Shown piece by piece: positions 1,327 through 14,980 of a stretch of DNA of 64,000 nucleotides. This stretch comes from Escherichia phage S127 BCL3. The translations under genes were made by a program, and so were the position numbers. Where the stretch lies: sequence record OQ626344, one strand, 5' to 3'. Below the pieces are notes generated by a model, which saw only the letters and a list, made by a program, of their open reading frames with translations, made no database searches and had not been told where the DNA came from. Position 1 is the stretch's first letter, and every line of letters starts with the position of its first letter.

Positions 1327-1467
1327 ATGACTGATTTTACTGAAGCTTTAATGATGGCCTTATCCGTTTTAGCGCTATCTGTGTGTTTTGGGGCGTTATT
1401 CACATCTCTGGTTAAAGTTTTACATACCATATTATCACCCAAGGAGCACAGTAATGACGAAGATTGA
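1327..1467 (+). CDS. small hydrophobic protein (46 aa), below ORF-track cutoff
   Basis: ATG preceded by AAGAGGTGAGGA SD; hydrophobic core; overlaps next start by 14 nt. Confidence 0.35.
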   Translation: MTDFTEALMMALSVLALSVCFGALFTSLVKVLHTILSPKEHSNDED

Positions 1468-1705
1468 CTTAAATGCTGGCGACCATGTTGTTGTCAAATG
1501 CATCGGGGACTATCTTGGATTCACAATCGGCAACACTTACGAGGCGGTAGTGGCGAAGGTTTATCATGATAAAGTCCTCAGCCTTGTATTTGACTGCGAT
1601 GATGACGGAGATGACCGTTACGTCTGTGAGGTGCTGGCACGTGACGATAGTGAAGACCAGAAATTCCTGGTTATCGAACTGAACGGTATTTTTGTAGAAC
1701 GTTAA
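1454..1705 (+). CDS. hypothetical protein
   Basis: Start moved to Met23 of track ORF 1388..1705 (track start is TTG) because AAGGAG SD lies 7 nt upstream. Confidence 0.5.
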   Translation: MTKIDLNAGDHVVVKCIGDYLGFTIGNTYEAVVAKVYHDKVLSLVFDCDDDGDDRYVCEVLARDDSEDQKFLVIELNGIFVER

Positions 1706-1733
1706 TTTAAAACAATATAAGGAGACTCTTACT

Positions 1734-2039
1734 ATGGCTAAATCTAAAGTTGAACTGTTCACCTCTCTGCCTTCTGACACTGCAGAGCGTGATCGCCTCC
1801 GTAAAACAATTGAAGAGCTGGTGGAACTTCAGCTTCAGATTAAAGATCTGAAAGACGCTATCAAGGATATTATTCTTGTCGAGAAACAGGATCACCTGTA
1901 TTCTCCTAAGTTTATCAAGTCATTGGTGGCTACCGAATTCGATATCCGCTACGAAGCTGAAAAACGTCGAGCTAAAATCGAAGAAGAGGTTGAGCACATG
2001 TCTGAAGCAGACATTCTGTTCAAACGCTCTGCAGAATAA
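1734..2039 (+). CDS. hypothetical protein (charged, coiled-coil-like)
   Basis: 101-aa ORF; TAAGGAG SD; followed by intrinsic terminator. Confidence 0.55.
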   Translation: MAKSKVELFTSLPSDTAERDRLRKTIEELVELQLQIKDLKDAIKDIILVEKQDHLYSPKFIKSLVATEFDIRYEAEKRRAKIEEEVEHMSEADILFKRSAE

Positions 2040-2046
2040 CAACGAA

Positions 2047-2070
2047 GAGGGGTCTTGGCCCCTCTTTTTT
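2047..2070 (+). terminator. rho-independent terminator
   Basis: GC hairpin GAGGGG-TCTTGG-CCCCTC followed by T6. Confidence 0.6.
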
Positions 2071-2093
2071 ACTATCTATGGAGGAGATCAGAA

Positions 2094-2420
2094 ATGCTAA
2101 TGCCGATTACTGTAAAAGAGCTAAATGAACGTGATGCAGGTGGCCTGTGGCCTGCACGGAAAATACGCTGCGTTTATATGAAAGAGAATCTTGAGCACCT
2201 TGATCAGCAGATTGCGGTTGGCGATATTTTCGAAGTTCTCTATTCTAATCGTCGCAACTGGGAAACCATTCAACCTTCCGGTTTTGTTCTTGCCAGACTT
2301 GATACTGGAGAAGTGATTATCCCTGGGCTGGACATTGTCTTCGAAATTATCCAAGAGTGGGATCCTGATAAGATTAAATATGAAGAGTTATTCGGTGAAG
2401 GTATTATCAAGCCTGTGTGA
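2094..2420 (+). CDS. hypothetical protein
   Basis: Start moved to Met14 of track ORF 2055..2420; GGAGGA SD 7 nt upstream. Confidence 0.5.
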   Translation: MLMPITVKELNERDAGGLWPARKIRCVYMKENLEHLDQQIAVGDIFEVLYSNRRNWETIQPSGFVLARLDTGEVIIPGLDIVFEIIQEWDPDKIKYEELFGEGIIKPV

Positions 2421-2728
2421 GGTGGATTATGTCTACAACGACAGCTAAATACTCCTATATGCCAGCAACCTCAGCAGAAATAAACTTCAGTTTCGATGTG
2501 TTTCCATTGTTTGAGGTGGTTCTGGCATACCCAACAATACTATCTACTCCTGAATCCCTTGTACCTGTTAAGTTGCAGAACGCTATGCACTCCATGCACT
2601 ACAACAATAAATGTAGGCACAGATGGTGTCAAGACGAGGAAAAAGATCTGGAGAGTTTGAAAGATTTTGACAGTCACCTTTTGACACCTTTTAGTTCCTC
2701 AAACCTAGACAAGCCTTCATGGGTATAG
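2417..2728 (+). CDS. hypothetical protein (start uncertain: GTG 2417 or ATG 2429)
   Basis: 103-aa track ORF overlapping previous stop; weak SD. Confidence 0.4.
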   Translation: MRWIMSTTTAKYSYMPATSAEINFSFDVFPLFEVVLAYPTILSTPESLVPVKLQNAMHSMHYNNKCRHRWCQDEEKDLESLKDFDSHLLTPFSSSNLDKPSWV

Positions 2729-2752
2729 CAAAGTATCAAATTTAAGGCACAT

Positions 2753-2780
2753 AGGACGCTCTGTGGCGTCCTTTTCTTTA
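2753..2780 (+). terminator. rho-independent terminator
   Basis: Hairpin GGACGC-TCTGT-GCGTCC followed by TTTTCTTT. Confidence 0.55.
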
Positions 2781-2941
2781 TCTGGTGAACGATTCCATAC
2801 CTTAAGCAGTTAATCTCATTACAGAGCGTTTAAAGGCGGCTTACAAGCAACTCTCTATTTCGAGCGTAGCGAGAACGCACGTCCGTTTTGACCAAAATCA
2901 CCATACGCTCGGATTTTAACCAAACCCTCGCGGTGTTTCTG

Positions 2942-2970
2942 TTGACACATTACCGCTCCTGAAATATGCT
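2942..2970 (+). promoter_or_regulatory. sigma70-like promoter
   Basis: TTGACA - 17 nt - TATGCT upstream of genes 3051 and 3357. Confidence 0.45.
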
Positions 2971-3050
2971 TATAGCATCGACACGTTCCAGCCATATGTC
3001 GATAAAGTCTTATTTTTTAAACATGTTGCCGGAATACTTACGGGTGGAAC

Positions 3051-13218: not shown

Positions 13219-13450
13219 GGTGTTTCCCTCTTGTTTGGAATTGCTCACAATGTAAGGCCTGTAAGTAAACAACCTATAACAAAACATGGCCCCCTTTAAA
13301 ATGCACTATGCTATAAAACGTTTGCCATGTCAATGATATTTTTAACGCCATAAAACGGCCCTAAGCGATGTTTTCAGGTTAAGAAAGGCGATTGCATAGG
13401 TAGGGGCCTTTATGGCGCTTGTGGGGCCAACCAGGGGCGATATCGGCGGG

Positions 13451-13483
13451 ATAGAAATAAAAAGCCCCGCACAATGGCGGGGC
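13451..13483 (-). terminator. rho-independent terminator
   Basis: Hairpin GCCCCGC-N6-GCGGGGC followed on minus strand by CTTTTTATTT. Confidence 0.6.
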
Positions 13484-13491
13484 GTTGGTTG

Positions 13492-13689
13492 TTATCTGTC
13501 TTTATGGCGGTATCGTTCTGCCTGTCGTTCACGTTCCAAAAGTAGGCCAGGCAATTTACGATCATAATGATTTCGCCAGATCTTTCCAAATCTTTTTGGC
13601 TTATTCAGTTTATTGTTACGCTGGCGGCGTTCCGGCAACTCTTCGGAATCATGAGGACGCTTTACAATTTTTTCGAAATTAATTTTCAT
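13492..13689 (-). CDS. small basic protein
   Basis: Start moved to Met9 of track ORF; AAGGGGGA SD. Confidence 0.45.
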   Translation of the reverse strand: MKINFEKIVKRPHDSEELPERRQRNNKLNKPKRFGKIWRNHYDRKLPGLLLERERQAERYRHKDR

Positions 13690-14032
13690 AGCTTCCCCCT
13701 TTACTGATTTCAATATTTGCCTGAATCGCCCGGATACGGCGTTTTATAACCTCCTGATCCGTGCAATCATACCCCCAAAAGTCTACAATTTTTGCGCCTC
13801 CAGCTTTTAAGCGGTATAGTGTTTCTTGCATCTTGTAAGCTGGGATCGGTCGTGGTGTTACCTGGTCGCCTTTCTCATCCTTGTACTTGATAATATAATC
13901 TTCATTGTCGTTGAATACCCAAAATGGGTATTCTGTAAAGGCGTTGCTCTCTTTTTCGTTTTTGGATTGGATCTTGTTTACAATTAAAGCCGTAGCAATA
14001 GCGCCAATGATAAAACTTGCACCGCTGATCAT
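13679..14032 (-). CDS. membrane-anchored protein (N-terminal TM helix)
   Basis: Start moved to Met7 of track ORF; AAAGGAG SD; hydrophobic N-terminus. Confidence 0.5.
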   Translation of the reverse strand: MISGASFIIGAIATALIVNKIQSKNEKESNAFTEYPFWVFNDNEDYIIKYKDEKGDQVTPRPIPAYKMQETLYRLKAGGAKIVDFWGYDCTDQEVIKRRIRAIQANIEISKGGSYEN

Positions 14033-14107
14033 GTTACTTTCTCCTTTCATGGTGTTAATAAATTATCTTTATAGATGGCCCTGCAGCCAGGACCACCGAA
14101 AAAATAA

Positions 14108-14353
14108 CTATTTCACAATGCCTACAAAACAGATCCCGCCTTCCCCGACGTAGGCAATATCGGTCACTTTGTAGTCGGTCAAGATCTGTTTATTCAGATC
14201 ATTAATAAAATCGGTCATTGCGTTGGTGTAGTTGTCTTCCATGTCTAGGGAATAATCCCAGGTGTAAACCTTTTTACGTCCGAAGCCTTTTACCATGATC
14301 CGGGCGCTTTTGGTGTTGGTAGGGGCATAGTATTTGGTGATTAGTGCTGCCAT
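14108..14353 (-). CDS. hypothetical protein
   Basis: 81-aa ORF; GAGGAG SD. Confidence 0.55.
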   Translation of the reverse strand: MAALITKYYAPTNTKSARIMVKGFGRKKVYTWDYSLDMEDNYTNAMTDFINDLNKQILTDYKVTDIAYVGEGGICFVGIVK

Positions 14354-14393
14354 GGTTTTAACTCCTCATTAGTTCAGTGTTAACAGTGTAAAG

Positions 14394-14438
14394 TTTACTT
14401 TATTGATGGCCCTGGAGTCAAGGCCATCTAAAAATAAA
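14394..14438. repeat. 45-bp conserved intergenic element, copy 2
   Basis: Identical to copies at 10388 and 15014. Confidence 0.8.
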
Positions 14439-14439
14439 T

Positions 14440-14781
14440 TTACTCGTTTTCTTCCAGTTCTGCAAGCTCTTCTTTCACTTCTTCGAGCTCTGTCTGCAAT
14501 TCCTGGTATTCTTCATCGTCCTCAATATCCAGGCTGTCGATGTAGTCGCTAAATCCGCAACGGTAAGCGATAGGATCTAGCTCCTTGAGGATACGCGACG
14601 GAAGAAAAGAAATGTTTCCGATCATGATTTCGCCGTAGACCTCGTCTAACCATTCATCATAGTTTTCGTCGTACTTGTCCTCGTCGATTTCAAAGTTATC
14701 GATCTTGTTCTCAAGGTCCGCGATCTGTTTTTTCAGTGCGGCAACCTGAATAGCTTTTTCTGCGGCGGTCATAGTGGTCAT
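14440..14781 (-). CDS. acidic coiled-coil protein
   Basis: 113-aa ORF; AAAAGGAG SD; driven by unit P2. Confidence 0.55.
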   Translation of the reverse strand: MTTMTAAEKAIQVAALKKQIADLENKIDNFEIDEDKYDENYDEWLDEVYGEIMIGNISFLPSRILKELDPIAYRCGFSDYIDSLDIEDDEEYQELQTELEEVKEELAELEENE

Positions 14782-14806
14782 GGTGTTTTCTCCTTTTGTG
14801 TGTTCT

Positions 14807-14860
14807 GGGAAGTTTTCCCGTTTACGTGTTTAAGTATACCGATTTAAGTTAGCTTGTCAA
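14807..14860 (-). promoter_or_regulatory. sigma70-like promoter plus 5-prime UTR hairpin (unit P2)
   Basis: Minus strand TTGACA - 16 nt - TATACT, then hairpin GGGAA-AACTT-TTCCC. Confidence 0.55.
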
Positions 14861-14980
14861 TTAAAAATTTAAGAAAAATTTTGCAAAACTGTTAGCGCTA
14901 CTCATTAACATTTGCGCCAGGATGTAACCGACAACGCAAACGATAATAGTTACCTTTGTGTATTGGCGTGTAGTGCTCAT
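14861..14980 (-). CDS. small hydrophobic protein (39 aa), below track cutoff
   Basis: AAAAAGGGG SD then ATG; sits between element copy 3 and unit P2. Confidence 0.35.
   Translation of the reverse strand: MSTTRQYTKVTIIVCVVGYILAQMLMSSANSFAKFFLNF

Follow-up and report, generated by a model that had tools for sequence, protein, structure and literature searches.

The first 16 kb of the 64,000-nucleotide (nt) stretch of Escherichia phage S127 BCL3 analyzed here (OQ626344; hereafter the window) carries five short open reading frames (ORFs), A to E, four of which are predicted to encode single-helix membrane peptides and one a small soluble protein. Bases 1-16000 matched 256 phage records, the best being those of rV5-like coliphages (Vequintavirus; 91-97% identity, 89-97% query coverage), and the source phage is an rV5-like Escherichia coli myophage of that genus. 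All five ORFs put forward by a first-pass annotation exist with the positions and lengths that it gave: 46, 44, 34, 59, and 39 amino acids (aa), respectively. As it described, they occupy gaps between larger genes, with A overlapping the next gene by 14 nt. Their reported invisibility to the ORF track is true in that they fall below its cut-off, and merely reflects the 60-aa threshold of the first stage.

The five turned out to be already known: they are annotated in rV5 (NC_011041) as gp151, gp165, gp168, gp169, and gp188 (ORF156, ORF170, ORF173, ORF174, and ORF193), were described in 2013, and belong to PHROG families. The window and rV5 orthologs share 84-100% amino-acid identity over their full length and have the same position, strand, and order; synteny with the neighbours up87, g83, g94, g63, g71, g134, and g113 is conserved. 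The rV5 annotation differs in that A starts at GTG and C is given as a 46-aa long form. In Table S3 of Kropinski 2013, ORF156 (46 aa), ORF170 (44 aa), ORF173 (46 aa), and ORF193 (39 aa) are labelled 'membrane protein, 1 TMD' (transmembrane domain) based on TMHMM/Phobius, as is ORF181 (39 aa), while ORF174 (59 aa) is unlabelled (PMC3606486). Whole-profile matches (E 1e-21 to 1e-39) assigned A to E to PHROGs 16755 (E=1e-35 for A), 16005, 14631, 9374, and 16391, respectively, all of 'unknown function'.

The suggestion that such small ORFs escape annotation did hold. Of the related GenBank records that were examined, about half leave out at least one of these genes: Murica lacks annotations for A and E, Phage 203 for A, B, and E, and ECP26 for B, with the frames intact in these phages. 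Bas53 annotates B to E, and A51.2 refers to C and E as 'putative membrane protein'.

Table 1. Small genes, neighbouring genes, and candidate regulatory elements in the window.
Feature	Position	Strand	Description
Promoter match	1279..1307	+	sigma-70-like, TTGACG-17-TATAGT, from a consensus scan; 20 nt upstream of A
ORF A	1327..1467	+	46 aa, MTDFTEALMMALSVLALSVCFGALFTSLVKVLHTILSPKEHSNDED; ortholog of rV5 gp151/ORF156
83-aa gene (g83)	1454..1705	+	ortholog of rV5 gp152; overlaps A by 14 nt
63-aa gene (g63)	7505..7696	-	soluble; starts 8 nt past the B stop; Shine-Dalgarno motif AGGTGGA overlaps the B stop codon
ORF B	7705..7839	-	44 aa, MRKIIITMGIVVAMLAIFPFMVRYVLISVVLVVSDLMLYINSLF; ortholog of rV5 gp165/ORF170
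94-aa gene (g94)	7842..8126	-	N-terminal signal peptide MKKMIAVVALVVGLNAPVMA/KE, two Cys; directly upstream of B
71-aa gene (g71)	8218..8433	-	starts 9 nt past the C stop; Shine-Dalgarno motif overlaps the C stop
ORF C	8443..8547	-	34 aa, MKQKLIDAMILVIALGIGLIATMANMILSSNGIG; core of rV5 gp168/ORF173
RNA hairpin	8570..8593	-	AGGUGGUGGA-AUGG-UCCACCACCU; 5' leader of C
ORF D	8640..8819	-	59 aa, soluble, acidic (net charge ~-5); ortholog of rV5 gp169/ORF174
Promoter match	8867..8894	-	sigma-70-like, TTGACA-16-TAGTAT; followed by a small GGGG..CCCC hairpin, then the Shine-Dalgarno motif of D
Gene F	10777..10896	-	39 aa, MTPKDKPRTDKVRRVTVWLEIIALEILLGVGMYFIAVSN; ortholog of rV5 gp176/ORF181
Promoter match	14833..14860	-	strong, TTGACA-16-TATACT; -35 box abuts the E stop codon (next base); corresponds to rV5 P192, for the 113-aa gene
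ORF E	14861..14980	-	39 aa, MSTTRQYTKVTIIVCVVGYILAQMLMSSANSFAKFFLNF; ortholog of rV5 gp188/ORF193
Promoter-like match	15012..15041	-	weak (9/12), TTGACT-18-TAAACT; upstream of E

The evidence that these frames are genes comes from their conservation. Homologous regions were compared from 11 Vequintavirus genomes or contigs, three Phapecoctavirus, one Justusliebigvirus, one Certrevirus, and one 348-kb jumbo phage. The frames are conserved in relatives: every copy of every ORF was uninterrupted. Frame and length were kept in 5-11 distinct sequences per ORF, with one B ortholog of 43 aa, and the ORFs were intact in other genera at 53-78% amino-acid identity. The ratio of nonsynonymous to synonymous changes (pN/pS), a counting estimate obtained by summing substitutions along a minimum spanning tree of distinct sequences, was 0.29 for A, 0.39 for B, 0.34 for C, 0.14 for D, and 0.24 for E. 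The other same-strand frames yielded values of 0.56-3.2 and the antisense -1 frame 0.25-0.61. In all five ORFs, variable columns were most frequent at codon position 3, followed by positions 1 and 2. Stops interrupt both alternative sense frames in every sequence, and likewise two of the antisense frames, or all three antisense frames in the case of D. Similarly, a scan of the region covering all 205 ORFs with 25 aa or more detected a significant synonymous excess for A, B, D, E, a sixth ORF designated F, and the accepted larger genes. The pattern of substitutions confirms apparent protein-level selection on all five ORFs and on the sixth. Finally, when the gaps were shuffled, the chance of an ATG-initiated ORF of the observed length was 0.006 for A, 0.002 for B, and 0.016 for D.

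The same filter also passes frames that overlie real genes. Six antisense ORFs (8291-8617, 6382-6501, 12150-12272, and 13412-13567 on the plus strand; 406-537 and 2455-2595 on the minus strand) satisfy a naive pN/pS < 0.6, because their wobble positions are shared with the true frame. Calling small ORFs on dN/dS by itself is therefore unsafe.

With respect to translation signals and hydrophobicity, the first-pass annotation was right for most of the set. It ascribed good ribosome-binding sites to all five ORFs. Pairing with the anti-Shine-Dalgarno (anti-SD) sequence was good for A (-10.1 kcal/mol), moderate for the short form of C, D, and E (-5.8 to -7.0 kcal/mol), and absent for B (-2.4 kcal/mol), so that the claim stands for four ORFs and fails for B. 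The SDs are conserved in relatives. Using a Kyte-Doolittle 19-residue maximum of >1.6 as the transmembrane criterion, A (2.34), B (2.69), C (2.43), and E (2.03) are predicted small membrane proteins, as was claimed; D (1.41) is not hydrophobic by this measure. F scored 2.15. Paralogy among the A, B, C, E, and F peptides was rejected, as no pair matched at E < 0.1.

Nucleotide searches of phage records detected A, B, C, D, and E in 117, 152, 109, 218, and 112 records, respectively. This pattern suggests accessory rather than core genes. B is cleanly absent from Murica, in which the stop of g94 is followed by an SD and then g63, and ECP26 lacks both E and the 113-aa gene (g113) while retaining the promoter. 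These absences indicate that B and E are dispensable accessory genes.

ORF B has a basic N-terminus and a conserved S-D-L (residues 34-36) within a VLVVSDL stretch. It was intact in 10 relatives at amino-acid identities down to 57%, nine of which have a 44-aa form and the tenth a 43-aa form; in the other genus, identity was 57-70%. The AlphaFold 2 model is one continuous helix of 42 residues (residues 2-43) with a predicted local distance difference test score (pLDDT) of 94.5. The gene lies 2 nt after g94 and 8 nt before g63. At the g94-B junction, most relatives have TAAccATG, and Phapecoctavirus L005 and L012 have an ATGA overlap. Having no SD, B would be a classic case of translational coupling to g94 by termination-reinitiation, and a clear example of a micro-gene that has a stop-start junction in place of an SD and will escape SD-based callers. 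The g94-B-g63 triad occurs in 10 fetched relatives from Vequintavirus and Phapecoctavirus, and the g94-B pair in two myophage subfamilies, Vequintavirinae and Stephanstirmvirinae. The product of g94 (phrog_9845, function unknown in PHROGs) is likely periplasmic or secreted, based on a signal peptide read from the sequence rather than called by a predictor.

An exhaustive profile search placed B in a family of only three 50%-identity clusters among 1.84 billion representatives, and returned nothing beyond this family (phage clusters only). The Pfam family DUF7396 (46 residues) aligned weakly over its full length with 8/10 members of the B family (best E=0.004); B of the window scored 16.4 bits, well under the gathering cut-off of 27, and membership is not established. 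A 'DUF3096' UniRef label on one B homolog was not reproduced. In tblastn searches of the phage collection, the 44-aa and 34-aa peptides recovered near-identical copies only, E-values being poor for such short queries.

ORF C has a basic N-terminus, one predicted helix, and the C-terminal sequence ATM(A/S)N(M/V)ILSS(N/H)GIG, which is almost unchanged in relatives at 53% overall identity, the SS and GIG being invariant. The frame also opens at an upstream ATG at 8583 to give the 46-aa form annotated in rV5. In this form, the apparent SD (-12.3 kcal/mol) is the 5' arm of the hairpin in the leader of C, the ATG is in its tetraloop, and the first codons, V-H-H-L, constitute its 3' arm. The hairpin is a perfect 10-bp stem (free energy -18.3 kcal/mol, z -4.4), and 0/200 shuffles folded as well. 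The conserved unit of C is 34 aa, and the 12-residue N-terminal extension is not conserved: Murica has an in-frame TAA within it, and phAPEC8-like phages start C at the inner Met. The PHROG profile is likewise 34 aa long, and C is a 105-bp coding sequence in Murica, Bas53, and A51.2. Based on the hairpin, the Murica stop, the inner-Met starts, and the profile length, the 34-aa start is predicted to be better than the 46-aa form of GenBank. The 46-aa start was rejected because its SD and ATG belong to a conserved hairpin, in the stem and the loop respectively, whereas its extension is not conserved. The first-pass annotation had chosen the 34-aa form, and we prefer this call to the one that most gene callers reproduce. 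The five genes, and the sixth, deserve consistent annotation, with C starting at the 34-aa form.

The hairpin and an upstream AACAAAGCATAATACAT box also precede different, unrelated genes in relatives. A recurring module, consisting of the box AACAAAGCATAA(T)ACA and then a GC-rich hairpin, was observed on the minus strand before C (8570-8593) and before g94 (~8155-8190), as well as before other genes in Phapecoctavirus and Vequintavirus relatives. The module probably marks transcript 5' ends, the box acting as a promoter -10 region and the hairpin as a stabilizing 5' stem-loop. The distance from the box to a nearby TTGACA is 21-23 nt, over-long for a canonical sigma-70 spacer. Downstream, the C-g71 pair is conserved in relatives.

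ORF D is the most conserved of the predicted small genes here. It was 59 aa in 11/11 fetched relatives and in 29/33 database clusters, with 28 invariant columns; the exceptions in the database are a few truncated or extended entries. The 218 records span four genera and include ~350-kb jumbo phages; a locus search with D returned four IMG/VR loci only. The promoter match upstream of D was conserved in 9 relatives. The structural model is compact (pLDDT 95.5), with four beta-strands and a C-terminal helix. A sequence search of the PDB with the D profile gave no match. Candidate fold types considered for D were AP2, WGR, and integrase-arm-type domains, which combine a three- or four-stranded sheet with a helix. 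By residue count (11 acidic, 6 basic), D does not have the basic DNA-contacting surface expected of an AP2/WGR-like fold. In BFVD, the fold recurs in uncharacterised 55-64-aa proteins of unrelated phages, among them Klebsiella jumbo phage RaK2, PBECO4, Pseudomonas phiIBB-PF7A, and Bordetella BB8; this recurrence suggests a small fold that is widespread among phage proteins and has been assigned no function.

ORF A is predicted to form one hydrophobic helix (~residues 7-29) followed by an acidic C-terminal tail. All eight relatives carrying the gene maintain 46 codons, with ATG replaced by GTG in two, and the synonymous-excess scan yielded a pN/pS of 0.24 (P=7e-5). Both hexamers of the upstream promoter match are unchanged in 8 aligned relatives, and the overlap between A and the 83-aa gene is identical in every relative with both genes. 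A would be the first cistron of a candidate operon that continues with the 83-aa gene and a 101-aa gene and ends at a terminator at 2044-2067. ORF E has a basic N-terminus and one predicted helix, and is intact in the fetched Vequintavirus relatives carrying the gene (scan pN/pS 0.16, P=6e-6). The weak promoter-like match upstream of E is conserved in aligned relatives. A, D, and E would each head a transcription unit driven by a conserved sigma-70-type promoter, and C probably does too.

Gene F is, by prediction, a sixth small membrane gene, overlooked in the first-pass annotation. Its N-terminus is very basic and its hydrophobic helix is C-terminal. SD pairing is strong (-10.7 kcal/mol), the scan pN/pS is 0.21 (P=5e-4), and the product matches phrog_13629.

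Based on these data, we consider it very probable that A to E are genuine genes expressed from host-type promoters and that four of the five encode single-helix membrane micro-proteins. Several observations weigh against this. The lengths of C (P 0.10) and E (P 0.11) are within chance in the gap shuffles. In A, B, and most C sequences, no stop interrupts the antisense -1 frame either, and its pN/pS is 0.47-0.61; its wobble positions coincide with those of the sense frame, so that the dN/dS margin is modest for very short genes. Literature searches for ribosome profiling (Ribo-seq) or whole-cell proteomics of rV5-like phages found none, leaving no direct evidence of translation, and the mass-spectrometry marks of Table S3, which denote structural proteins of rV5, include none of these ORFs (PMC3606486). 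As to a possible host-takeover or anti-defence role, no homolog of known function and no Pfam or defence-related family was found for the five. The same literature searches found no relevant transcriptomics or functional work on the genes of the small-gene region of rV5-like phages.

ORF length alone is insufficient proof, and conservation is the decisive evidence. The sense frames are preferred because they have the lower pN/pS, vary less at position 2 than at position 1, possess SD-bearing or coupled starts, and tolerate the ATG/GTG swap in A, and because no viable antisense ORF exists. More specifically, the antisense ORF over A has a pN/pS of 1.07, none with a start codon spans B, and the 108-aa antisense ORF across C is interrupted in one of the relatives.

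Three other explanations were weighed, each of which is less well supported than the reading of A to E as protein-coding genes. Small holins and Hok/TisB-type toxins are of similar size, with a single helix and charged ends. The hydrophobic peptides recall these proteins in all three respects, and some relatives label a nearby 123-aa membrane protein 'putative holin'. That the peptides are lysis-timing or membrane-damaging factors, whether holins, antiholins, or type-I-toxin-like pore formers, is nevertheless very unlikely. They are encoded in the small-gene block behind sigma-70 promoter matches, far from the lysozyme (ORF89) and proposed holin (ORF129) of rV5 (PMC3606486), and lack the location beside lysis genes, and would lack the late expression, of holins. 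Moreover, they have no sequence relationship to holin or toxin families in Pfam or PHROGs, and natural isolates dispense with B and E.

Alternatively, the short frames could be leader or coupling ORFs in which the act of translation matters rather than the peptide: ribosomes would pass from A into the 83-aa gene and from C into g71, and B would form a bridge between g94 and g63. The junctions are tight, with A overlapping its neighbour by 14 nt, B lying 2 nt from g94 and 8 nt from g63, and g71 following C after 9 nt. The SDs of downstream genes overlap the stop codons, and the lack of an SD of its own in B fits such a device. However, purifying selection acts on the amino acids over the whole length of the frames, and motifs are kept across genera, namely S-D-L in B and the C-terminal stretch in C. 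In Murica, which lacks B, g63 simply has its own SD, and what follows D and E is promoters, not coupled genes. We regard this explanation as highly unlikely. Least probable of all is that the frames are untranslated, their conservation being due to promoters that overlap them, to RNA structure, or to an antisense product that has gone unrecognised. In its favour, these regions are dense in promoter-like motifs and hairpins, the antisense -1 frame is open with pN/pS <1 in A, B, and most C, and C and E are of chance length. Against it, the antisense ORFs fail as described above, and in each of the five ORFs the columns vary least at sense position 2, the wrong pattern for an antisense frame. Lengths are kept at 53-70% amino-acid identity whereas non-coding DNA of the same genomes gains indels, and no Rfam family matches.

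The five genes belong to a block, driven by sigma-70 promoters in rV5-like phages, that was described for rV5 as '88 mainly small ORFs' (PMC3606486). In the window, a rightward transcription unit ends at ~2730 and a leftward unit extends from at least 16000 down to ~6130. With the five ORFs and the ORF at 10777-10896 placed on the map of bases 1-16000, the remaining gaps are 60-210 nt and contain promoter- or terminator-like motifs; the larger exceptions are a variable segment of ~0.5 kb (12985-13491) and a 3.4-kb gap (2729-6131) with two small genes near its start followed by a low-coding stretch (~3640-6131). There were no tRNAs, and no Rfam match was found in window bases 1-16200. The genes neighbouring the small ORFs are all of 'unknown function' in PHROGs, so that no neighbour is informative.

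Several features of this region lie apart from the small genes. The stretch at ~3640-6131 comprises 2.5 kb without an ORF bearing a coding signature (pN/pS ~1, with frameshifts among relatives), a tRNA, or an Rfam match, and corresponds to the 'non-coding' box of rV5 (104013-106618) between convergent transcription units (PMC3606486). Several short repeats, both direct and inverted, lie in it, including an 18-nt perfect inverted repeat (5285-5302/5419-5436) and two copies of GCCATGCCATTCGTTTGCAT (at 5176 and 5450); candidate roles are a replication origin or an RNA. On the minus strand, a 79-aa ORF (13048-13287) lies within a ~500-nt segment matching 3/16 fetched relatives only; it resembles a variable insertion in the S127 BCL3 phage and has a weak match to phrog_20874. 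Beside it, a 65-aa gene (13492-13689, minus strand), is the ortholog of rV5 ORF189, in which the Pfam Phage_1_1 (T7 gp1.1-like) domain is present, and is among the few genes in the block with a family link beyond its own relatives. Finally, about two dozen GenBank records of the MG0656xx series ('Campylobacter phage C5, D#, A13b, A14x') are roughly 92% identical to this coliphage region, and their Campylobacter jejuni host labels look doubtful.

The arrangement of the genes permits a proposal for how they act. The first-cistron positions behind sigma-70-type promoter matches suggest early transcription by host RNA polymerase; the polymerase would thus transcribe A, D, E, and probably C early in infection, and B would be made by termination-reinitiation coupling to the gene for the secreted 94-aa protein. 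The positive-inside rule suggests an N-in topology for B, C, E, and F, such that the basic N-termini of B, C, and E would be in the cytoplasm and their conserved C-terminal tails would point towards the periplasm. The membrane peptides may bind larger envelope proteins of the host or phage, B acting together with periplasmic g94, and D may be a small soluble protein-binding inhibitor. The envelope of the infected cell would thereby be remodelled or protected: for example, a superinfecting phage could be excluded, a membrane-bound defence blocked, or a transporter or protease modulated. All five genes would be dispensable for plaque formation on laboratory hosts. The envelope mechanism is built on the size, location, and coupling of the genes and on parallels with T4 Imm/Sp and bacterial micro-proteins, and any specific version of it is, at best, improbable. 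We likewise judge it unlikely, if somewhat less so than the lysis and coupling explanations, that g94 and B form a two-component envelope module that excludes competing phages or disarms a membrane-embedded defence and that D is a new, broadly distributed inhibitor of host proteins. A screen of the small-gene block for exclusion or anti-defence activity would best begin with the g94-B pair and with D, which is very widely conserved. As a discovery, the five ORFs are of little weight; the added value lies in the corrections on how B is coupled, where C starts, and the presence of a sixth gene, along with the leads on g94-B and D.

Two groups of known systems provide a comparison. In T4, Imm, an 83-aa membrane protein, and Sp (spackle), a periplasmic protein with a signal peptide, are an early superinfection-exclusion pair. 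Like them, g94 and B would be transcribed early, would pair a small inner-membrane protein with a small secreted one, and would be non-essential accessory genes. B is half the size of Imm, and Imm and Sp, unlike g94 and B, are not translationally coupled. The likeness is one of architecture, and viewing g94-B as an Imm/Sp-like pair is pure inference by analogy. The bacterial proteins AcrZ, MgtS, MgrB, and SgrT are single-pass regulatory micro-proteins, of a kind that annotation routinely overlooks, and they act on a larger membrane protein by binding it (reviewed in PMC10730256). The peptides described here differ in being phage-encoded and without homology to these proteins, the exhaustive search with B leading to phage clusters only. 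They resemble them in having ~30-50 residues and one predicted transmembrane helix.

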